Virus record (IMG/VR): IMGVR_UViG_3300045988_147415
DNA: 63,014 bases
Source: a virus
Lineage: Duplodnaviria > Heunggongvirae > Uroviricota > Caudoviricetes
Reading direction: 5' to 3' (one strand)
Shown: positions 6,025 through 62,347 of the stretch, one piece after another
Layout of the letters: each line of letters opens with the position of its first letter
Position numbering within the stretch: the stretch's first letter is position 1
Notes under the pieces: model-generated
What the model was told of the DNA's origin: nothing
Databases searched by the model: none
The model's input: the letters and a program-made list of their open reading frames with translations, nothing else
Made by a program: the position numbers and the translations under genes

Positions 6025-6102
6025 AGGTCGATCTGTCAGGTATCGAAAGGAAGATTTTCTGGAGATTGTGATTTTGGATGAAGGAGGGGGAATTCATAAA
6101 AT

Positions 6103-6174: not shown

Positions 6175-6477
6175 ATGACCAAAAAAATTAACATAAAGGA
6201 TTTCAGGGATGCGTGGCTTGATGATTTTTTTGAATTTTCAACACCACATAGAAAGATACCTCCTGATATTCATATGACATTGTCACGGAAGTTGGACATT
6301 ATCAATGCCGCAACTACCTGTAAGGATTTAAGATCACCACCAGGTAATCGGTATGAGGAACTGTCAGGGAAGCTAAATGGCTATTCATCAGTAAGGGTGA
6401 ATAAGCAATATAGGTTAATTTTTAAGTGGGTTAACGGAAAGGCCGAGGACTTGTATCTCGACCCTCACAAATACTAA
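6175..6477 (+). CDS. higB: HigB-family toxin (plasmid maintenance system killer, RelE/ParE superfamily)
   Basis: DLRSPPGNRYEELSGKLNGYSSVRVNKQYRLIFKWVNG matches the conserved HigB core; toxin-first order with adjacent HTH antitoxin. Confidence 0.8.
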   Translation: MTKKINIKDFRDAWLDDFFEFSTPHRKIPPDIHMTLSRKLDIINAATTCKDLRSPPGNRYEELSGKLNGYSSVRVNKQYRLIFKWVNGKAEDLYLDPHKY

Positions 6478-6547
6478 AACAGATACCCGGTTACGGACCG
6501 GGTTCTGACCAGAGTCCACTTAATACGCACGCTAGTAAGGGCAAAAA

Positions 6548-6886
6548 ATGAAACAGGCAACCAGAAAACCGACGACCGTAGGTGATATCCTGCTGTACGA
6601 ATACCTGGAGCCGTTAGAGCTGAAGATCAACGAGTTAGCAGAAATACTTCATGTTCATCGTAACACCGTAAGTGCTCTTGTTAATAATAATCGTAAGCTA
6701 ACGATGGATATGGCATATCGCCTGGCAAAAGCATTCGATACTTCTGTAGATTTTTGGATTAATCTTCAGACCGCAGTAGATCTGTGGGAAGTCGAAAATG
6801 ATATGCGCGTTCAGGAAGAGTTAAGTCGTATCAATACTGCTGAAAAATTTATTTCTCAGCGGAACCTGAATAAAAAAGCAGCCTGA
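6548..6886 (+). CDS. higA: HigA-family antitoxin (XRE-type HTH)
   Basis: GDILLYEYLEPLELKINELAEILHVHRNTVSALVNNNRKLTMDMAYRLAKAFDTSVDFWINLQ is a classic HigA HTH; directly downstream of higB. Confidence 0.8.
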   Translation: MKQATRKPTTVGDILLYEYLEPLELKINELAEILHVHRNTVSALVNNNRKLTMDMAYRLAKAFDTSVDFWINLQTAVDLWEVENDMRVQEELSRINTAEKFISQRNLNKKAA

Positions 6887-6942: not shown

Positions 6943-7143
6943 ATGAACATTAAACCTATCCGTACAGAACAAGATTATGAGGCCGCACTGCGTGCGGTCG
7001 AACCGATGTTCGATAACGAACCGGAAATGAATACTCCGGAAGGTGATTTCTTTGAGGTTATGAGTCTTCTCATTGAGGAGTACGAGAAGAAACATTACCC
7101 AATTCAGCCACCATCACCTGTTGAATCTTTTAACTATCCATAA
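6943..7143 (+). CDS. short ORF resembling only the N-terminal (non-HTH) domain of XRE/HigA-type antitoxins; possibly truncated
   Basis: MNIKPIRTEQDYEAALRAVEPMF...EEYEKKHYPI is the usual N-terminal segment of longer antitoxins but the ORF stops before any HTH. Confidence 0.4.
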   Translation: MNIKPIRTEQDYEAALRAVEPMFDNEPEMNTPEGDFFEVMSLLIEEYEKKHYPIQPPSPVESFNYP

Positions 7144-7164
7144 TAAAAGTAATCAGGATAAGCT

Positions 7165-7893
7165 ATGATGTCAGAAAAAGTTAAAGATAATTCGTCTATA
7201 AATGAAACAGAACTAAAATCATTTTCTGAAATAATAAAAGATAAAATATTTAACAAGGTTTTTGCATATGTTGTCATTTCTTTTCTAATCCTTAACTGGA
7301 AGGATATTTTAATTATATTAAAGTCAAAGGACGACATCCTATATACATTATCTATTGTTTTTGTTGGTGGTAATGTACCGTTCTTTGATAATTGGATTGT
7401 ACCCCCGTGGGTTTGTCACGTTGTAATCCCATTTATTTATGGAGTATTTGCATCTGTATTAGCTCCTATTCTCACACTGACGATATCTAAGCTAACAAGT
7501 AAATTATACACTGAAATAAGATATTTAGATGAAGTTGCTGATTATGATAAAAGAATAGAATTGCAAAGAAAGAAAACAAAGTTAAATCAAGCAACCAATG
7601 ACGCTAAATATTCAAAACAAATCTTAGATGAAAATGAAAATAAACTTAATGACTTGGTTACGAAACAGCGAGAAATTTGTGGCGCGATAAAACTATTGCA
7701 TACTGATGTTGGCAGTATTATTGAACTATATAAAAATAAGGGGGTTAGCATTGAATCTCCGCAAGATTTATGTGATTTTATAGTCGCTATAAAAAGCACA
7801 TCATTCTATAATGATGACAAGCATTTTAATAAATTGGTGTCTGATATTTCCAGTTTGTTTGATAATACTGGAATTGATCTTTCAAAAAAATGA
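7165..7893 (+). CDS. AT-rich cargo gene: membrane protein with cytoplasmic coiled-coil domain (candidate abortive-infection/defence protein)
   Basis: Strong drop in GC over the ORF; three hydrophobic helices then a Lys/Glu/Asn-rich coiled-coil region; own terminator. Confidence 0.55.
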   Translation: MMSEKVKDNSSINETELKSFSEIIKDKIFNKVFAYVVISFLILNWKDILIILKSKDDILYTLSIVFVGGNVPFFDNWIVPPWVCHVVIPFIYGVFASVLAPILTLTISKLTSKLYTEIRYLDEVADYDKRIELQRKKTKLNQATNDAKYSKQILDENENKLNDLVTKQREICGAIKLLHTDVGSIIELYKNKGVSIESPQDLCDFIVAIKSTSFYNDDKHFNKLVSDISSLFDNTGIDLSKK

Positions 7894-7899
7894 AAGCCC

Positions 7900-7940
7900 A
7901 GCATAAACTACTAGGCTATGTGTGGTTTATGCTTTTTTTA
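7900..7940 (+). terminator. Rho-independent terminator after the AT-rich membrane-protein gene
   Basis: Hairpin AGCATAAAC...GTTTATGCT followed by TTTTTTT. Confidence 0.5.
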
Positions 7941-9120
7941 CATACTCCATGAACATTTTTTCAGCTTGTGCTGGTGGTGTTCCAGCCATGACAAGCGCAT
8001 CAATGAACGCCTGCTTCTTCAGTGCGAACTGATCGGCAAGGCGTTGCTGAAGCTCCTTGTTTTTCTGTTTCTCACGTTGCAAGGCCGCTTCTTTTGCTGC
8101 CGCCCGTTTTTTCTGTGCATCTGACAACTTTCTGGCCTTGGTCAATTGGTCACGTAGTTTGTCGATCTTGCCGTTGTCCTTTGCCAGTTTTGTACTTAAA
8201 GCTGCCTGGCGCTTCTGATAGAGCCTCCATTCGCGTTTGGCGGCTTCAACGTTCGTTTTACTGCTACGATTGCGATTAAACTCCTTCTCGTCTTCTTTTG
8301 AGAAGTGTTTAGTTGTACGGCGGCGATCGTCACCAAATGCAATTTGCGTTGCAGCCTTTTGTAGCGCACGAGCAATACTCATTTGCCAACTGGCGGACTG
8401 TAACCGCGTCATTGAGTGGATCACGTGTTTACAGGCGACGCCTTGCAGCTTCGGGTTGCGAACTTTTGGATAGGCGTATTCTTTTGGCGGTGCCAGGGCA
8501 AAGTTACCCGCAGTGGCGATGTAACGATACCAGTATTGATGACGACCACAGTCACAATCGAAAGACACTCGCCCGGCGCACAGTGATTTAGTGATTTTGA
8601 GAGCTGATTTATCGTCTTCTGCGATGTCATCAACCATCTGATCCCATTCTTCAAAGCGTATCCTGACGATATGGTGCTGGTGGACGGATATATCCGATGC
8701 TTCTACGCGGATATTAATCACATTGTGGCGAAGAGATACGGGTGTAGCTCTTTTGATACCAGATCCGTCATCCACGGCGTTATTTGCACGCTTAATATCG
8801 ATTGCCTGGCTGGATGCCACCAGCTGGGCGTATGTGATGCCAGCCGTCTTGCTGTCATATTTTTCGCGCGTTTTACTCCGTAGCTTTTCGAAACCTTTCA
8901 GGTCGTCTCGCGTGAAGAACGTGCCGCCTTTTTTCTTCCCTAACTTGAGAATATCTTCGGCGGATTTGTTCCTCAGTCTACCTGGCGTCAGCGTCCGGTG
9001 AGCTTGTCGGCGCTTACGGGTTTGTTCTTTCCTGATAAGGTCGAATAAACGCGTGAAGTCCTTAGAGGACAGGCCGTCAGTGATATAGCGCCCGTCCTGG
9101 TTTTTCAGGAAATCAGGCAT
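7927..9120 (-). CDS. SWIM zinc-finger protein with Lys/Arg-rich coiled-coil C-terminus
   Basis: FDCDCGRHQYWYRY...GVACKHVIH fits the CxCx(n)CxH SWIM motif; 397 aa. Confidence 0.55.
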   Translation of the reverse strand: MPDFLKNQDGRYITDGLSSKDFTRLFDLIRKEQTRKRRQAHRTLTPGRLRNKSAEDILKLGKKKGGTFFTRDDLKGFEKLRSKTREKYDSKTAGITYAQLVASSQAIDIKRANNAVDDGSGIKRATPVSLRHNVINIRVEASDISVHQHHIVRIRFEEWDQMVDDIAEDDKSALKITKSLCAGRVSFDCDCGRHQYWYRYIATAGNFALAPPKEYAYPKVRNPKLQGVACKHVIHSMTRLQSASWQMSIARALQKAATQIAFGDDRRRTTKHFSKEDEKEFNRNRSSKTNVEAAKREWRLYQKRQAALSTKLAKDNGKIDKLRDQLTKARKLSDAQKKRAAAKEAALQREKQKNKELQQRLADQFALKKQAFIDALVMAGTPPAQAEKMFMEYVKKA

Positions 9121-9442: not shown

Positions 9443-9635
9443 AACAAAGCCTCTCAGTCATAACCTGGGGGAAACTGTATGCAGGGTGTGAAATGCGAGA
9501 AACAGACAGGCCACCAGTTCAGGGGGATGGGGTTCATAAATCCCCTCACTGGTGACAAGTGACTTTCATTAATCTTTATGCGGGGGCCAGCTTCATTTGC
9601 TGGCATTAGATTAAAAATCAAACGGAGTAAATGAC

Positions 9636-9770
9636 ATGGATGTTATCTTCGAATTATTAATGCTAATTGATCTGTTTATGAACGCTTCATTGACCACTCA
9701 AATACTCGCGTCAATATTTTTGTTACTCTTCTACCTGGTATTGAGGGAGTTAACAAAGCTACTAATGTGA
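9636..9770 (+). CDS. possible small hydrophobic peptide (44 aa)
   Basis: ATG with GGAG about 11 nt upstream; MDVIFELLMLIDLFMNASLTTQILASIFLLLFYLVLRELTKLLM; convergent with the next gene; not in the ORF track because under 60 aa. Confidence 0.25.
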   Translation: MDVIFELLMLIDLFMNASLTTQILASIFLLLFYLVLRELTKLLM

Positions 9771-10424
9771 TCAAAGTATCACGGTATCTTCATCAACTTC
9801 TTTCCCAGCCAGTGACTTTGGCTGGGAGGTGCCTGCTTTAACTTTTTCATGCCCAATAATGGACAGGAACGAAGCGAGTATGCCTGTTTTTTGTTCTTTC
9901 TCGACTGTACCGGTCATCTGCTCTACGTAATCCGCACTGGCAACGTTGTGGTATACGGTCGCGTAGCAACACAGGATCATAATAATATGTTCCGGCCTGA
10001 TGTCCTGCCAGTTCACCCGGTAGACTTCTTCTCCGTTACCGTTGTATTCGGTGTCAACGATGGAGTCGGGGATTTCGAAAGCACCTTTGTTATTTTGCGG
10101 CAGGGATAATAGCTTCTGGAGTTTTAGCTCTCTGTATCTTTCCATCCCGACGATGATTGCTGCTCTGCCATCGGCATGACGGGTCTTGAGAGTCACCTGG
10201 CTTGCTCCGGTGCCAGCGGAGATCGTTGGCGTAATTTCGTCTACTAGAACCTTAAATTTGCTTTTCCGCAGGGCTGCTATAGCTGGAGGAATTTTTTGCT
10301 TTTGCTCCAATGCTGACGCGGGAAGGGGTTTTACTTCGTTAATAATGAGAGCACCGTCTTTCAGTATTGCAGTGAGCATTTGAGGCTTGCTGGTGGTCAG
10401 GCTGAATATTGCGATCTTTTCCAT
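9771..10424 (-). CDS. hypothetical protein
   Basis: Start set at internal MEKIAIF with GGAGGA RBS; the longer ORF would read through a terminator hairpin. Confidence 0.5.
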   Translation of the reverse strand: MEKIAIFSLTTSKPQMLTAILKDGALIINEVKPLPASALEQKQKIPPAIAALRKSKFKVLVDEITPTISAGTGASQVTLKTRHADGRAAIIVGMERYRELKLQKLLSLPQNNKGAFEIPDSIVDTEYNGNGEEVYRVNWQDIRPEHIIMILCCYATVYHNVASADYVEQMTGTVEKEQKTGILASFLSIIGHEKVKAGTSQPKSLAGKEVDEDTVIL

Positions 10425-10450
10425 TGTCCTTCCTCCACGGATGACGGATA

Positions 10451-10476
10451 CAAAAAAAGGCCGCACATGGCGGCCT
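10451..10476 (-). terminator. Rho-independent terminator on the minus strand with no annotated gene upstream
   Basis: Hairpin AGGCCGC-ACATG-GCGGCCT followed on the minus strand by a 7-nt U tract. Confidence 0.5.
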
Positions 10477-10769
10477 GCTTTGGCGTTATGACTCCCTACC
10501 GCGCTTCGGCTGAAAGTTAATCGTCAAAAGAACCTTCAACGGGAGCCGTTAGCGCGATGGATTATGTGCAGTTTGTGATTTCCAAAATAGTGTCAACCAC
10601 TTTTTATGGATTTTATTTTTTGACCGAAATTTGGCCTAAATCATGTTGATTTGGCTGATTATTTTTATAACATAAAAGTCATTTTGATTGCATGAAGGAC
10701 GGTGCAGTGAAGTTAAGGGTTTTAGGGACCGCGCTCGCGGCTAAGATGGTAAAGTATGGAGTTAATGAA

Positions 10770-11591
10770 ATGTTTTTTATAAAAAATGGAAAAAGATGTT
10801 CCTCAACAATACTTGCTACTGTTGTTGCTCTCTCTGTTCCCACATTTGCCTTTGCTTATGATTTTAGCAAAATTGACTGCAATGCCCCTAAAACCAGACA
10901 GATGTTAATCGATGATTATAATGAACTGCTGAAGGACGATCAGGAAGCAATCTCTGTAATTGATGCTTATAATCAGATCAATGAGATAAGAGAAAAAAAT
11001 AAGCTCCAATGCCTGGGAACGTATGAATTCTCAGATGGAAGTGCGCTTAGGGTTAGATATAAGTTATATTTAAATAGCCTCGGCACACCCATATATGAAT
11101 TTTCTCCAGTTGAGGAATTAACGCAAGATGACGTAAGCGCATCTATCCAAAATATCCCTGCAACCACAGCGAGTAAGGCTGGAGGGAATGAAGAAACGTA
11201 CTCCTGTAAAGTGGCTGTAACCTACAATGGAAAGCGCTCTAACTATATGGGGGATACCGGAGTCTGGGATCGTGTGATTACTGACTATGGCACTTATTTC
11301 TCCTGGGATTTGCCGCGCGGAAATCGAGGCAATAGTACAGGCCAGGATGCTTTTAGTGGCATGGACGAATTAAAGCCAGCATTAGAAAATAAGCTGGTGA
11401 GAAAGGAAGTCGAAAAAGATGGTAGCGTGGTTGATGAATTTAGGACTGATGTAAGTTATGGGGAAAAACAACCAGTTCATAAGTTTGTATATGCTCGTAG
11501 AATAAAACCTACAGGCATGAGAGAGTATTATGTTACGGATTTAACAGACAAGCGGGCGTTTATGTTTCTGAATTGTCAGAGAGATTCGTGA
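10770..11591 (+). CDS. AT-rich cargo gene: secreted protein of unknown function
   Basis: Signal-peptide-like N-terminus (KRCSSTILATVVALSVPTFAFA); low GC relative to flanks; start at internal ATG with GGAG RBS. Confidence 0.55.
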   Translation: MFFIKNGKRCSSTILATVVALSVPTFAFAYDFSKIDCNAPKTRQMLIDDYNELLKDDQEAISVIDAYNQINEIREKNKLQCLGTYEFSDGSALRVRYKLYLNSLGTPIYEFSPVEELTQDDVSASIQNIPATTASKAGGNEETYSCKVAVTYNGKRSNYMGDTGVWDRVITDYGTYFSWDLPRGNRGNSTGQDAFSGMDELKPALENKLVRKEVEKDGSVVDEFRTDVSYGEKQPVHKFVYARRIKPTGMREYYVTDLTDKRAFMFLNCQRDS

Positions 11592-11630
11592 TTGACATAG
11601 CAGGCTTACTATTAAGCCTGCTTTTTGGCT

Positions 11631-11990
11631 TTACTCGGTAATAGTTTTGCAGTTGTTTTGATTTAATGACAATCCTAGCTTGCTAGCAGCCAACTCATTT
11701 TCTGTGTGAGAACCAGCAAAAATGAAGCCTTGTTTTATCTTATTTACGGTGAAATATTTATTATACATGAACGCCCAGATAAATGAGGCAATCCACGGGC
11801 CAATTCCGGCTGTGAGGAATGCCAGTATCAGCATCACTACAAATACCCCAATAAAAGTTATAAAGTCTTTCCTGAACAAAGCTGGAAAAGCACCAAACAA
11901 GAATGTAGTCCAGGAAAAACCATAAAAACCGGTGATTGATTCGCCAGTTTGAGGGTTTTCAAGTTTAATTTTAGTAGCCACGATTATCAT
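11631..11990 (-). CDS. AT-rich cargo gene: small inner-membrane protein
   Basis: 119 aa with two or three hydrophobic helices; low GC. Confidence 0.5.
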   Translation of the reverse strand: MIIVATKIKLENPQTGESITGFYGFSWTTFLFGAFPALFRKDFITFIGVFVVMLILAFLTAGIGPWIASFIWAFMYNKYFTVNKIKQGFIFAGSHTENELAASKLGLSLNQNNCKTITE

Positions 11991-12126
11991 CCTTTTACAT
12001 AAAAAACATATAGTTATAGTGCTGTGTGAGATTCTAATGTTACTAATTTACACTTTGTAATGCAATTAAATAACTTTAGGCAGTGGAAGTAACTATTCGT
12101 GGCAGACTATCGTTAAGACCTTTCAA

Positions 12127-12411
12127 TTATGGTTGCTGTAAGTGGAGGGGAACAGCCTGTTCTATCATCTCGCGTATCAAGCCAACTTCAAGTAGTTCCT
12201 CGGATTCCCAGTATCTGTTTGTCACCAGATCCAGGCTGGCTATGACCTTGTGCCGGTCATTCGGCATAGCCAATTTTTCTGCTATAACCATCAGTGAAAA
12301 CTCTTCATCCAGTAGAATTTGATAGCAGTTTTTTGATAGTTCCACTTCCCTTATGAGACTGAAACGTCGCTGGATTGTGGCAGCAGAGTAAGTGAAATCT
12401 ATTTTCTTCAT
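12127..12411 (-). CDS. hypothetical protein
   Basis: 94-aa ORF just downstream of the antirepressor gene. Confidence 0.4.
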   Translation of the reverse strand: MKKIDFTYSAATIQRRFSLIREVELSKNCYQILLDEEFSLMVIAEKLAMPNDRHKVIASLDLVTNRYWESEELLEVGLIREMIEQAVPLHLQQP

Positions 12412-12470
12412 CGTGCGGAGAATCCGGTTATTTAGTAGTTAAAGCCCCGGACAGGCCGGGGCAACAGTAA

Positions 12471-13412
12471 TTAACTAACAATCCAGTCCGTAGCAACAAC
12501 ATCCTCTGGAGCTAAATCAATCGCATGGATTTTCCCATCCCGGATGGTGCGCCAGTGCTTTCGTGATCCACCTTCGGGCCATACCCATACACCTTCAGGC
12601 CAGGATGCTCGACGGCATACGATTGCATACCCTGTTTTAATCCTCTCTCTCGCGGTATGCAACGACAGGTTTGCCTTTGGACTTTCAGGTACAGGATGGT
12701 GAATGGCCTGAAACAGCCCCATTTTGGGGTGATACCAGCGTTTATTACGTGGTTCTGCCTCCGACATCACCTGCTTAAAGGCTTTCCGGAAGGGGGCCAG
12801 GGCCACAATGGAGCGTCGCGCAAGCAAACCATCTGGAGTTAAAAACTCATGCGTATCGGTGGGAATCCGGAAAGCGTTGACCAGGTTGCGACATTTGGCT
12901 TCAGTCAGGCCACATTTCGCCGCCAGCTGGCGGTAGCCAATGTAGCCTTCCGGAATATTGCCTTTCTTGATTTGCTCGACGGTTTCAGCGACTTCGGACA
13001 CTTGTGCCGATACTTCGGCTACCTGGGCATTAACGGCGTTGATCCGGCGTTCATGCTCAAGATGCATTTGCGCCATTTCAGCCAGGATTTCGGCTTTTGA
13101 TTTTAACTGTACCCGGGCATTCTCCAGTTCGCGCCAGCGGTCCACCAGCCGGGCGGTAAATTCGGGAGAAAGCTGTGCGACGACAATGATACTGTCACGC
13201 TTGCCTTGTTCGCCTTCAAAGATGTAAGCCTTGGAAAATCGACGAGGGCCAACTGATTGTTTATTTTCAATTTCCTCAATTTGAGGAAATTGAATGACAC
13301 CACCTTTAGTTAATACTTCAATGGTACGCTTCACATTATCATGACGCTTACCTACCAGTTCCGCGATCTCAATACTGGTCATTGTCGCTTTTTGAGAGAT
13401 GGACAGATTCAT
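12471..13412 (-). CDS. ant: phage antirepressor (N-terminal Rha-type domain, C-terminal Ant domain), immI-like copy 1
   Basis: TSIEIAELVGKRHDNVKR Rha-type N-terminus; 313 aa; paralog of the 51842..52549 gene; preceded by an icd-like ORF as in P1 immI. Confidence 0.75.
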   Translation of the reverse strand: MNLSISQKATMTSIEIAELVGKRHDNVKRTIEVLTKGGVIQFPQIEEIENKQSVGPRRFSKAYIFEGEQGKRDSIIVVAQLSPEFTARLVDRWRELENARVQLKSKAEILAEMAQMHLEHERRINAVNAQVAEVSAQVSEVAETVEQIKKGNIPEGYIGYRQLAAKCGLTEAKCRNLVNAFRIPTDTHEFLTPDGLLARRSIVALAPFRKAFKQVMSEAEPRNKRWYHPKMGLFQAIHHPVPESPKANLSLHTARERIKTGYAIVCRRASWPEGVWVWPEGGSRKHWRTIRDGKIHAIDLAPEDVVATDWIVS

Positions 13413-13627: not shown

Positions 13628-13689
13628 AATGGCAGCCTCCTTTTGCTAATTTAAGGAGCTACCGCGTGAGGTTCCAATCTCAATGGCGG

Positions 13690-13790
13690 TAGCACTGACT
13701 GGGTTGGAACTACCGGCGCAAAAGGGAACCGGCCTGCCTTTCGGCAGCCCAGCCAGCACTACCATTGATCTCTGAGCTAAACGCTACGTA
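13690..13790 (-). ncRNA. candidate c4-like antisense regulatory RNA (tRNA-like features), immI copy 1
   Basis: Minus-strand transcript carries GUUCCAAC complementary to GAUUGGAACC sites both upstream and about 42 nt before the icd start; a UAGCUCAG...GGUAG D-arm-like segment suggests RNase P-type processing; boundaries approximate. Confidence 0.3.
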
Positions 13791-13811
13791 TGGCTGTGCG
13801 ATGGCATGACA

Positions 13812-13835
13812 CAAAAAAAGACGCTTTCGGCGTCT
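13812..13835 (-). terminator. Rho-independent terminator upstream of the c4-like region
   Basis: Hairpin AGACGC-TTTCG-GCGTCT followed on the minus strand by UUUUUU. Confidence 0.5.
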
Positions 13836-13940
13836 GTGTCGCCTTTTGCATTATCCGGGGTTCCAATCCCGGCACCCGTTTTTCTAAGGTGCCGTAGAAA
13901 TATACCCCACGATAATGCCAGGGCGCAACAGTCAGTATTT

Positions 13941-38220: not shown

Positions 38221-38296
38221 TGGTGGCCCCTACCGGATTTGAACCGGTGACCGTGCGATTATGAGTCGCCAGCTCTAACCACTGAGCTAAAGGGCC
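38221..38296 (-). tRNA. tRNA-Ile (anticodon CAU, ileX-like; Met cannot be excluded)
   Basis: 76-nt cloverleaf GGCCCTTTAGCTCAGTGGTTAGAGC...GGCGACTCATAATCGC...GGTTCAAATCC...GGGGCCACCA, closely resembling E. coli ileX. Confidence 0.8.
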
Positions 38297-38433
38297 AGAT
38301 TACTGTTAATTCCGCTTACGCTTTTTGCCAGAACCGCGTAAGGCTTTTGCCGCTTGCTCGGCCCCATATGCAACCACCAGCAAAAATAAAAATGTCCAAC
38401 CAGGGTTCTTATCGGCAAACGCCCAAAAATTCA

Positions 38434-38667
38434 TCACTTACAGCCACCTTGCATTTCCTTGGATAATTCATTGATTTTAGTGCTCAATAAGTAATCAAAG
38501 TAAAGATAAAACACAAAAGTAACGATAGTGCTTAAAGTGTCTGAAATTGCGTATTTCAGCTCAGGAAGCATGACAAAGCAGACAAATAGCGGAAGAAATA
38601 ACTGCACTATGCACAGGCTCTTCTTCCACAACCATCTATATCTGAAGTCTGACAACAAAAACTCCAT
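38434..38667 (-). CDS. possible small membrane protein inside the tRNA cluster
   Basis: AT-rich ORF with two hydrophobic helices; start ambiguous and RBS weak. Confidence 0.3.
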   Translation of the reverse strand: MEFLLSDFRYRWLWKKSLCIVQLFLPLFVCFVMLPELKYAISDTLSTIVTFVFYLYFDYLLSTKINELSKEMQGGCK

Positions 38668-38799
38668 TGCTTGAAACTTTATTAGGTTGCGGTGCCTGGT
38701 GCCTCCAGGTGACGTTAACCAGTTAACAATTAACGCCGGGATGTTTGACTTAACCACTAAGGAGGATTGTTTTAACTGTTCCGCGTGCGCTTAGCCGCA

Positions 38800-38920
38800 T
38801 TCACCGCAATGGTAAGAGCACTTGGCTGGCTGGGCGGCGATGACGCCTGTACGCATTTGGTGATCCGGTTCTGCTTCCGGCATTCGCTTAATTAGCCAAA
38901 TACTCTTAACGTTGCACTGG
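38800..38920. repeat. hairpin trailer element, copy 1 (immediately 3' of tRNA-Ser)
   Basis: Conserved TCACCGCAATGGTAAGAGCACTTGG paired with CCAAATACTCTTAACGTTGCACTGG about 70 nt away. Confidence 0.4.
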
Positions 38921-39004
38921 CGGAGAGTAATGGAATCGAACCATCATCGCTTGCGCAATGGGACGGTTTTCAAGACCGCTTGAGCACCATGCTCCCTACT
39001 CTCC
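38918..39004 (-). tRNA. tRNA-Ser (anticodon UGA), long variable arm
   Basis: 87 nt; acceptor GGAGAGT/ACTCTCC, anticodon loop CTTGAAA, T-loop TTCGATT, CCA encoded. Confidence 0.75.
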
Positions 39005-39129
39005 AGTGATTGTGGCGACCGGTGCTGATCTCCGGCTTGCGGTTATTTCAGACTCTCACGGGCGTTTAATTGCCCCGCCGAACAGCTCTTTTCCGCAATA
39101 GCTGCAATGTCTTTCGCGCATCAGCCTGC

Positions 39130-39240
39130 GCATTCACCACAATGTTGAGAACACTGGTTGTCACGCTGCAACGCAACATTTATTCGTAGATTGGGATATG
39201 ACCCCGTTACGCCGGTGTTCTCAACGTTGTAGTGCCGGTT
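39130..39240. repeat. hairpin trailer element, copy 2, with a duplicated fragment of the tRNA-Thr 3' end
   Basis: CACAATGTTGAGAACAC ... GTGTTCTCAACGTTGTAG 17-bp inverted repeat followed by GTGCCGGTTACGG. Confidence 0.4.
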
Positions 39241-39366
39241 ACGGTTCCGGCCAGGCCTCTTCCTCAACGGGGTGTTCTCCATACGGACTACCGTTTATTG
39301 GTCGTTCCTGCGGTTTATGTTGTGAAGCCAGATGCTTATCTTCTGGTTGCTTCTAGGAGCTGCACT

Positions 39367-39452
39367 TCATCACAACGGTAAGAGCATTTATGGCTCGCAT
39401 CGCGGGAAAAAGCCCACGGTAGAGAGTCGAACTCTACAAATGCTCTTACCTG
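39367..39452. repeat. hairpin trailer element, copy 3 (immediately 3' of tRNA-Thr)
   Basis: GGTAAGAGCATTT ... AAATGCTCTTACC 13-bp inverted repeat enclosing two internal hairpins; no valid cloverleaf on either strand. Confidence 0.4.
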
Positions 39453-39458
39453 TTGTGT

Positions 39459-39534
39459 TGGTGCCGGTTAACGGGATCGAACCGCTGACCATTCGCTTAC
39501 AAAGCGACTGCTCTACCAACTGAGCTAAACCGGC
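39459..39534 (-). tRNA. tRNA-Thr (anticodon UGU)
   Basis: 76 nt; acceptor GCCGGTT/AACCGGC, D-arm GCTCAGTTGGTAGAGC, anticodon loop TTTGTAA, T-loop TTCGATC, CCA encoded. Confidence 0.8.
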
Positions 39535-39538
39535 AATT

Positions 39539-39625
39539 TGGTGGGGAGTGATGGAGTCGAACCACCCGAGTCGCAATGACAGTAGATTTACAGTCTACCC
39601 CGCTACCCCTACGGACTAACTCCCC
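39539..39625 (-). tRNA. tRNA-Tyr (anticodon GUA), long variable arm
   Basis: 87 nt; anticodon stem-loop GTAGACTGTAAATCTAC as in E. coli tRNA-Tyr; acceptor GGGGAGT/ACTCCCC; CCA encoded. Confidence 0.7.
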
Positions 39626-39630
39626 TAAAT

Positions 39631-39707
39631 TGGCGATGGTGGGTGGATTCGAACCACCGACCGACAGCTTAGAAGGCTGCTGCTCTATCCTACTGAGCTA
39701 CACCATC
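39631..39707 (-). tRNA. tRNA-Arg (anticodon UCU, reads rare AGA)
   Basis: 77 nt; acceptor GATGGTG/CACCATC, anticodon loop CTTCTAA, T-loop TTCGAAT, CCA encoded. Confidence 0.8.
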
Positions 39708-50975: not shown

Positions 50976-51126
50976 AGGATTTCCCCCTCTAAACCGTAAA
51001 AAATTCCGCTATGCGGTACGATTGAGAGGGTATGGAGAATGTTATTTTCAGGGGGACGATACTACCGTCAAAATCACATACTCCCCATAGTTTGCCTACT
51101 TATTAACCCATGACCGGGAGAAAAAT

Positions 51127-52773: not shown

Positions 52774-52829
52774 AGTTACGGCCTCACTAACAGGTTTAAC
52801 AACCTGCTACCCGCTGTCAAACAGGTGGC

Positions 52830-52920
52830 AGGACGTGACAGGGTTGACAGACTGGCGTTAGTGAAACCAGCAGGCCGAAGCCTCCCCATCACGCCCCACC
52901 ATAATTCGGGCGTAACGCGG
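52830..52920 (-). ncRNA. candidate c4-like antisense regulatory RNA, immI copy 2
   Basis: CUGUCAAC element complementary to UUGACAGC sites located about 41 nt before the icd start and again about 170 nt upstream; same geometry as copy 1 with a different sequence; boundaries approximate. Confidence 0.3.
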
Positions 52921-53116
52921 TTTACGGACACAAAAATACCGCAATATCGGAAATCTGCGGTTGTCCGCACTAACATTCAGGCTGTCAAACCTGGTCGCAG
53001 AATTTGCTACGACGGCATGAATATAAGCCTGAAAACATGGAAGATCAACTAAAAATTTCAGCAATGGATGACTTCAGTCGATGATGCAGATCATACATTC
53101 CGATTTAGAAACAGCA

Positions 53117-57044: not shown

Positions 57045-57108
57045 GAATCACCGCAAATTGTTTCCAGTTTTGCGGCAGCATAATCAGTATGTGATTTCAG
57101 CGGTTGGT

Positions 57109-58506: not shown

Positions 58507-58588
58507 CTATAGAGAAAGCTGTGAGTGTAAAAAGTGTGTGATTTATGTGAGAACAGATAAGTGAAAGGGGCATTTCAGCCCCTTTTGA

Positions 58589-62269: not shown

Positions 62270-62347
62270 ACCCCTCCAGAAATAACATCTAATGCGCCAC
62301 TAACTTAGTCAGTTTGTTATTTCCTTACAGGACATCTTCTAAAATCT

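Follow-up and report, generated by a model that had tools for sequence, protein, structure and literature searches.

The 63,014-nucleotide (nt) window analyzed here (IMG/VR record IMGVR_UViG_3300045988_147415) is a D6-like plasmid prophage of the P1 family, and our subject is the locus between its late gene mat and its immunity region immI. This locus joins two adjacent, separate things: a swappable cargo cassette and, on the mat side of it, a conserved leader RNA that ends in an intrinsic terminator immediately upstream of mat. Our preferred reading, which we consider probable rather than secure, is that the RNA is an attenuating leader gating the late operon mat-26-25 and that the cargo is a swappable SimB-like cassette. 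Over positions 9700-12500 the window is 96.8% identical to Escherichia phage D6, and 119 non-mobilizable plasmids (~90 kb; E. coli, Salmonella and Shigella) match the same region. The D6 record labels the genes at the locus mat (maturation control), orf79 ("similar to P1 simB"), orf80, pmgF, ant and icd; a late morphogenesis block (genes 25, 26 and mat) and the immI region flank it. The mat side of the locus contains these features:

9771 to 10424, minus strand: mat, maturation control protein of 217 residues, the first gene downstream of the terminator (D6 and plasmid annotation; phrog_1837)
10451 to 10476, minus strand: intrinsic terminator with a 7-bp stem (six G-C pairs), a 5-nt loop and a U7 tail (terminator scan; -13.1 kcal/mol)
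10451 to 10555, minus strand: structured leader RNA of ~105 nt (folds, RNAalifold, covariance model at 36-141 bits, covariation)
10561 to 10581, minus strand: predicted late-type promoter, with box AAATCACAAACT (10581-10570), spacer GCA and -10 hexamer CATAAT (10566-10561) (motif scan)
10591 to 10596, minus strand: TTGACA hexamer, the left edge of the conserved mat-side module (allele C alignments and breakpoints end exactly at 10596)

The terminator reads AGGCCGC-CATGT-GCGGCCT followed by T7 (stem 10476-10458, T-tract 10457-10451) and was the best terminator hit in the region. It is present in every relative examined, with a stem that is invariant or compensated in 15 of 15 lineage representatives, and in Enterobacter it has been retained through a register shift. 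An earlier interpretation made from the letters alone (the sequence-only reading) had pointed to a strong minus-strand terminator at 10451-10476 with no gene upstream of it on that strand, and had regarded it as an orphan that might end an unannotated small RNA or leader lying in 10490-10690. Scan, folding and conservation all bear out the terminator, and there is no credible minus-strand open reading frame (ORF) in 10477-11630. The terminator is no orphan, however: it lies on the conserved, mat side of the breakpoint and travels with mat whatever the cargo. The proposal of a small RNA or leader holds in substance and fails in its coordinates: the RNA would span ~10555-10451, behind a promoter at 10561-10581, with its 5' end placed from the position of the -10 hexamer.

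Only 27 nt, including a GGAGG ribosome-binding site, separate the T-tract from the mat ATG at 10424. We saw no promoter-like sequence in this interval, so mat and genes 26 and 25 would be transcribable only by read-through. Six other lineages (L187-L192) have mat and genes 26 and 25 overlapping or abutting, which places the terminator at the head of a late operon with baseplate and tail genes in it. This window differs in having an extra 328-nt slot (9443-9770) between mat and gene 26; other lineages lack it, and their two genes overlap. An E. fergusonii plasmid carries higBA in this slot; here it holds a very hydrophobic 44-residue ORF (9636..9770, plus strand). That ORF is preceded by AAGTGACTT-TCAT-TAATCT (9557-9575, plus strand), the window's only exact match to the P1-type late-promoter consensus, which otherwise occurs in the window at chance level.

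Single-sequence folds and RNAalifold agree on a three-way junction followed by a linker and the terminator. The junction is built from an outer helix (GGCUCCC/GGGAGUC), a first hairpin with the loop YUUUUGRCRA (here CUUUUGACGA) and a second hairpin containing GCGCGG. The module runs from TTGACA (10596) to the T-tract (10451), ~150 nt in all; 96 of 121 plasmids carry it with at least 99% identity, and among 5,426 complete E. coli genomes it occurs in 101, in each case on a plasmid. It stays ~95% identical where Mat is only 77-85% identical (~80% in the mat coding DNA) and where the upstream flank is unrelated. The module is almost unannotated, with hypothetical-protein calls in a few records only. 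Rfam 15 gave no match at gathering or relaxed thresholds; the best sub-threshold matches, to Hrs13 (15.6 bits) and isrK (14.7 bits), were driven by the terminator. We conclude that the leader is absent from Rfam and from nearly all annotation, while its kind, a leader and terminator at a late operon, is itself known. No description of a mat leader or of LPmat was found in the searchable literature, a scope without the P1 and D6 genome papers.

To follow the RNA into more distant relatives we used covariance models. The first, built from eight D6-clade leader sequences, found the leader upstream of Mat homologs 49-64% identical to ours (36-100 bits, E values of 1e-7 to 1e-23) in Salmonella, the Enterobacter cloacae complex, Pantoea and metagenomes. 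A second model reached a lineage whose Mat is 35% identical (29.5 bits), and pattern scans of genomes and metagenomes added only one new lineage. Between them, the models covered lineages L137, L140 and L187-L192. In a 15-sequence alignment, fitted to the model and containing many closely related sequences, 92.2% of cells were paired, whereas sliding the partners gave no more than 52%. Compensatory changes occurred in 16 of 32 pairs, against 6.4 ± 1.8 in shuffles, and none of 500 shuffles reached any observed measure. RNAalifold recovered the same helices with nine compensated pairs, a result that is not independent of the covariance model because the alignment was built with it. The compensatory changes support three helices upstream of the terminator. 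In addition, the sequence itself does not vary in the loop YUUUUGRCRA, in GCGCGG or in the terminator stem (GGCCGC/GCGGCC), suggesting sequence-specific recognition beyond simple termination.

The predicted promoter of the leader belongs to a family. The motif AAATCACAWWCT-N3-(xAxxxT) occurs seven times in the window, compared to 0.14 expected, and 0 of 100 shuffles reached that number. The sites are 6054-6074 (-), 10561-10581 (-), 51027-51047 (-), 51071-51091 (+), 57077-57097 (-), 58524-58544 (-) and 62302-62322 (-). Every one of these boxes is correctly oriented in front of late genes: tail gene 7, mat, a 2278-residue DarB-like gene, lysozyme, portal, a 465-residue ORF of unknown function and a holin operon, which also encodes a 658-residue protein whose PHROG is described as "released from the phage upon host infection". 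Every divergent lineage retains the layout of box, N3 and -10 hexamer. Our first guess at the promoter, AAGTGGTTG-N4-TATTTT, has no repeats elsewhere and was dropped for the AAATCACAWWCT box.

This arrangement recalls the Lpa-dependent late promoters of P1, which have a 9-bp box at about -22 and a -10 hexamer (for example, LPmat, AAGTGACTT-N4-CAGAAT). Both types set a box at a fixed distance from the -10 hexamer, both lack a properly spaced -35, and both head late operons that include mat. A TTGACA also lies upstream of LPmat in P1 Pmat, as it does upstream of the D6-type leader promoter. The D6-type box differs from the P1 box in sequence and in spacing (AAATCACAWWCT-N3). From this comparison of sequences, we regard the D6-type box as a variant of the P1 Lpa box, with a putative dependence on Lpa.

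P1 shows this architecture too. Each P1-like locus has LPmat, a ~115-nt leader, the terminator AAGCCGCCGCTGGTGGCTT+TTCTTTTTT, GGGG and then ATGGATAAG; in P1 coordinates the leader occupies 2697-2815, the terminator 2787-2815, and the ATG homologous to that of our Mat is at 2827. D6 Mat and P1 Mat align from this ATG, where the predicted start is MDKKICVV. The predicted folds of the P1 and L164 leaders are three-way junctions in which a loop contains CUUUUCAA (z-scores of -2.6 and -3.3), and one compensatory pair distinguishes the two lineages. In GenBank, the P1 mat coding sequence (NC_005856, 2716..3468, 250 residues) starts within the leader, with a 37-residue extension that is read through the terminator (..RRWWLFFFV). 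The frame of this extension is broken in many P1-like contigs that have four rather than five G before the ATG, and PGAP already calls a 213-residue Mat. The GenBank start of P1 mat thus appears, from these alignments and frames, to be 37 codons too early.

Our analysis directly supports the conservation of the module, its promoter family, its RNA secondary structure and terminator, the order of the genes and the counterpart in P1; from these we infer transcription, the 5' end, relief of termination and any activity of the short RNA in trans. In our preferred reading, a late, Lpa-type promoter would start a minus-strand transcript near 10555, and most late transcripts would stop at the hairpin and release an RNA of ~105 nt. 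A fraction, possibly dependent on a factor, would read through into mat-26-25, and the terminated RNA might also act as a small RNA. The Mat protein itself suggests why such gating could be useful. Its predicted model (pLDDT of 79, with a core above 90) resembles the nuclease domains of large terminases and RuvC resolvases in Foldseek (E values of 5e-4 to 1e-3, TM of ~0.45-0.53), and it has conserved acidic residues. The model thus suggests that this "maturation control" protein is an RNase H-fold nuclease, and a nuclease-like fold would be a plausible reason for tight gating.

Several observations weigh against the attenuating leader. The promoter, the transcription start and termination are all predictions. 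TTGACA and the -10 hexamer are 24 nt apart in the E. coli clade, a distance that makes activity without an activator doubtful. We found no convincing conserved antiterminator helix in the leader; an alternative helix, CGCGCU/AGCGCG, has one compensatory change and crosses the outer helix, and the terminator takes no part in it. No factor that relieves termination was identified. The model-fitted alignment, with its many close relatives, tempers the covariation. Finally, the D6-derived covariance model R2 does not score P1-type leaders, which leaves common ancestry of the D6-type and P1-type leaders plausible but unproven. A bolder extension of the attenuating leader, which we hold only tentatively, is that the mat leader is an unrecognized riboregulator of the whole P1/D6 supergroup. 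Its invariant loops would bind a factor that switches the terminator and so times the expression of Mat and baseplate proteins, and the ~105-nt product would perhaps also serve as a late small RNA acting in trans, a role hinted at by a stand-alone chromosomal copy of the module. Mat itself, the Lpa/SspA-modified RNA polymerase and Hfq may be candidates for a factor that recognizes YUUUUGRCRA and GCGCGG.

The main rival holds that the module is primarily a free-standing gene for a late, trans-acting small RNA, with invariant loops that are seeds or protein-binding sites and a position before mat that is incidental or serves a dual purpose, like that of IsrK in Gifsy-1. Its best evidence, and a further point against a pure leader, comes from Enterobacteriaceae bacterium RIT691 (L077, WJYM01000007.1), where a 318-kb contig carries a stand-alone copy of promoter, leader and terminator at 1563-1695. 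This copy is 80% identical, and the homology spans exactly the stretch from promoter box to T-tract. Its neighbors are a 454-residue lipoprotein-like gene and tail-fiber assembly genes; mat is missing and nothing else there resembles the window, yet the helices of the copy are kept by compensatory changes, which fits a free-standing small RNA better than a pure leader. The invariance of YUUUUGRCRA, GCGCGG and the terminator stem likewise exceeds the needs of a simple terminator, the U7 tail is typical of Hfq-type small RNAs, and a prophage immunity region provides a precedent for an RNA serving as both small RNA and mRNA leader (PMC4825925). On the other hand, the element stands directly upstream of mat in all of the ~130 other loci, across Mat lineages down to ~35% identity, and the RIT691 copy could be a remnant. 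A duplex scan against the translation-initiation regions of the window found no target, giving only long, meaningless duplexes. We judge a primarily free-standing small RNA gene to be unlikely.

Two simpler explanations fare worse. If the hairpin were a mere insulator shielding mat and the tail genes from cargo transcription, the sequence upstream of it would be conserved as promoter or operator DNA. The adjacent slot does change its cargo often and contains a minus-strand gene with its own predicted promoter, and the hairpin at 11599-11622 is followed by no T-tract in the minus-strand direction, which could let antisense transcription through to the terminator. However, the terminator lies downstream of the late promoter and would stop mat's own transcripts too, the module is identical next to allele B, whose cargo genes are all on the plus strand, and the compensatory changes in the three upstream helices reflect selection on RNA structure. 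An insulator is therefore improbable. We find it very improbable that the region is protein-coding, whether as an N-terminal extension of Mat or as a leader peptide controlling termination. The 250-residue Mat annotated from 2716 in P1 and a 17-codon ORF with a TTG start, which keeps its frame in three D6-type lineages, both speak for coding. Against it, the P1 extension would be translated through the terminator in a frame that is often disrupted, while D6 Mat aligns from the downstream ATG that the 213-residue PGAP form uses. The TTG ORF has no Shine-Dalgarno sequence, its differences are nonsynonymous, and it is absent or truncated in L187, L189 and L192. On the evidence of the TTG ORF and the P1 extension we rejected a coding role, and the attenuating leader remains the reading that we prefer.

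On the other side of the breakpoint lies the cargo, with these features:

10646 to 10673, plus strand: predicted sigma-70 promoter for the cargo gene, TTGATT-N16-TAACAT (read from the sequence; conserved in alleles A and B)
10709 to 10749, plus strand: in-frame remnant of the start and signal peptide of allele B, VKLRVLG.ALAA (allele B translation, intergenic alignment, breakpoints)
10750 to 12140, no strand: exchangeable AT-rich cargo cassette, allele A (breakpoints against alleles B, C and composites; 38.5% GC; allele census)
10770 to 11591, plus strand: predicted exported two-domain protein of 273 residues (signal peptide 1-29, SimB-like N-domain ~30-116, linker, C-domain ~141-273)
11599 to 11632, plus strand: intrinsic terminator of the SimB-like gene (terminator scan; folds at -15.3 kcal/mol)
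11631 to 11990, minus strand: small inner-membrane protein, DUF2628-like, 119 residues from the ATG at 11990 (phrog_4915; hydropathy)
12031 to 12060, minus strand: predicted promoter of the membrane-protein gene, TTACAA-N18-TAGAAT (read from the sequence)

All of the features in the sequence-only reading are present at or near the positions it gave, and as an interpretation it was partly supported: the cargo island stood, the RNA stood with the corrections above, and its denial of recognizable motifs did not survive for the secreted protein. The low-GC segment is real by composition, with 38.5% GC over 10746-12120 compared to a window mean of 47.6% (standard deviation of 3.0% for windows of equal size), and only 2% of equal-sized windows are as low. 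Its status as a cargo island is borne out both by this deviant composition and by relatives that hold other cassettes between fixed breakpoints. The mat side is common to the relatives as far as 10749 (alleles A and B) or 10596 (allele C), and the right side from ~12141 onward.

At least four cassettes occur between these breakpoints. Allele A, found in this window and in D6, encodes the protein with the SimB-like domain and C-domain together with the membrane protein. The commonest, allele B, encodes two secreted proteins of 202 and 130 residues; allele C combines the same C-domain with a different N-domain, with the membrane protein present or absent, and composite alleles also occur. Every allele encodes proteins with predicted N-terminal signal peptides. 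In the Enterobacter plasmid pJBIWA008_2 (L013, 1997-2830) the 202- and 130-residue proteins of allele B are fused into one of 277 residues (compare L005, 2509-3530), which suggests that the two secreted proteins act together. The left recombination junction, at about 10749/10750, falls within the signal-peptide codons of allele B, and this accounts for the in-frame remnant (VKLRVLGTALAA) upstream of the true start here. Variability around simB has been reported in D6-like plasmids (PMC6799933). We conclude that the cargo is a "moron", an accessory cassette that can be exchanged, and that it occupies a recombination hot spot with the mat promoter on one side and pmgF/immI on the other; it is ordinary of its kind and partly published already.

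The ORF at 10770..11591, for which a signal peptide had been proposed, is real: GGAG lies 7 nt upstream of its ATG, and its PHROG match is full length, with the phrog_13054 profile aligning over 1-273 of 276 positions and starting exactly at 10770. Its sole hydrophobic segment is formed by residues 10-32 and is followed by AFA|YD, which predicts export. In the D6 record and in some plasmid records the gene begins at 10692 or 10716. Such longer in-frame ORFs run through the allele B signal-peptide remnant, and the start predicted at 10770 is the one that fits the ribosome-binding site and the profile. Pfam, NCBIfam and PADLOC returned no match for the cargo proteins or for those of the alternative alleles, in keeping with the claim that neither protein has recognizable motifs. 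That claim fails in that both proteins belong to PHROG families and the N-domain is a homolog of P1 SimB. In BLASTP, residues 8-116 are 46% identical to the 111-residue SimB (E value of 1e-27), a match confined to the N-domain, and tblastn likewise matches the P1 simB region. The likeness is noted in the D6 record itself for orf79 and has been described for pYU39_89 (PMC6799933).

Homologs of the 273-residue protein are rare, forming only 11 clusters among 5.8 billion proteins. Among these clusters the N-domain is swapped while the C-domain is highly conserved, and each domain has a conserved pair of cysteines. Its AlphaFold model is weak (pLDDT of 59.5), and a Foldseek search against the PDB returned nothing at E <= 0.001, with a weak resemblance of the individual domains to cystatin, latexin and NTF2-like folds. 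A relationship of the C-domain family to SimC was considered and rejected, as hhalign shows none. The protein is probably an exported, disulfide-bonded periplasmic protein that combines a SimB-like N-domain with a family-specific C-domain.

The convergent small membrane protein had also been called correctly as a real ORF (11631..11990), with a hydrophobic core of 38 residues. Its more likely start is the GTG at 11981, giving 116 residues, a prediction that agrees with the PGAP call and with most homolog lengths. Its 183 homologs come from jumbo phages, Lactobacillus phages and the chromosomes of Enterobacterales and of beta- and alpha-proteobacteria, where gene neighborhoods are not conserved. 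The D6 record labels orf80 "similar to p492 of phage 121Q", and UniRef names some of the homologs DUF2628. The window protein has no match to the Pfam entry for DUF2628 (PF10947) at E <= 1, and the homolog P0021 scores 12.4 bits, below the cutoff of 23.

We think it most likely, by analogy with the sim genes of P1, that the cargo proteins are envelope proteins that would interfere with superinfecting phage. Only the sim precedent suggests the function: proteins that are exported, encoded next to immI and dispensable for lytic growth. The secreted-protein gene has its own predicted promoter, divergent from that of the leader, and its own terminator, and the membrane-protein gene has its own predicted promoter. 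Two points count against this assignment: the function of SimB is unproven in P1 itself, and the 273-residue protein shows no homology to SimC (BLASTP E value of 0.78; hhalign probability of 0.06%).

The rest of the element supplies the setting. Immediately to the right of the cargo genes lie pmgF, ant, icd and C4, where Rfam places a C4 antisense RNA and an isrK-like RNA (13682-13892). The window holds two copies of the C4 antisense RNA, one with an isrK-like RNA upstream and the other with a c4-a1b1 target element (13682-13769, 13814-13892, 52821-52906 and 52974-53026, all on the minus strand), which implies two immI-like modules. Nothing in the window matches the P1 C1-operator consensus. 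The window also encodes four tRNAs, at 38224-39707. Another low-GC stretch (7001-8000, 31-33% GC) holds a 242-residue ORF (7165..7893, plus strand) adjoining a RelE/ParE-HigA toxin-antitoxin pair at 6175-6886, both between tail genes 7 and 25; presumably, this stretch is what the sequence-only reading had counted as the first cargo island.

P1 is a classic model phage, and in Enterobacteriaceae accessory and resistance genes are widely carried by P1- and D6-like phage-plasmids. If the attenuating leader is real, it would add an RNA-level control step to the late expression of the P1 family, which is now explained by Lpa-activated promoters alone; it would also correct the reference annotation of P1 mat and give annotation pipelines a new RNA family. 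The mat leader is testable and conserved as an architecture across the P1/D6 supergroup. The module also marks a fixed boundary of the cargo hot spot, and the ref-mat gap of P1, into which resistance transposons insert (PMC11117986), is the equivalent site. The cargo proteins would be candidates for superinfection exclusion.

Several known systems resemble one or the other part of the locus. The cargo finds its counterpart in the sim locus of P1 (simA-simB-simC, by immI), which likewise places signal-peptide proteins beside the c4-icd-ant immunity region, shares the SimB domain and is also variable among relatives. The sim genes are non-essential for lytic growth (PMC10695390). Unlike SimB, the protein here has its SimB-like domain fused to an unrelated C-domain of 135 residues and is paired with a small membrane protein, and the cargo gene lies downstream of ant/pmgF whereas the sim genes lie upstream of c4. 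The cargo has no homolog of SimA or of SimC, the protein credited with exclusion in the P1 record, and a D6-like plasmid has been reported to lack simA and simC (PMC6799933).

The leader shares with attenuation leaders and riboswitches a structured 5' region, covarying helices and an intrinsic terminator immediately upstream of an ORF; it differs in having no demonstrated alternative antiterminator fold and no Rfam match. IsrK of Gifsy-1 and the C4 RNA of P1 immI offer a likeness in short terminated and read-through mRNA isoforms from one promoter of a temperate phage. The mat leader departs from isrK in that the isrK model matches only the terminator part (14.7 bits compared to a cutoff of 50) and in having a late promoter rather than one from the immunity region. 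In phage lambda, the late promoter PR' produces a short terminated transcript, the 6S RNA that ends at tR', and the late genes are reached by Q antitermination. No Q-like protein or Q-binding element was identified for the D6-type leader, and the late promoters of the P1 family depend on the activator Lpa, unlike the constitutive promoter of lambda. No leader like that of mat was seen at the other late-type promoters of the window when their sequences were read by eye, so that it appears only at the mat-26-25 operon. What the two systems have in common is a late promoter with a strong intrinsic terminator ~100-200 nt on, which would have to be passed for the late genes to be reached and at which a short RNA would be released.

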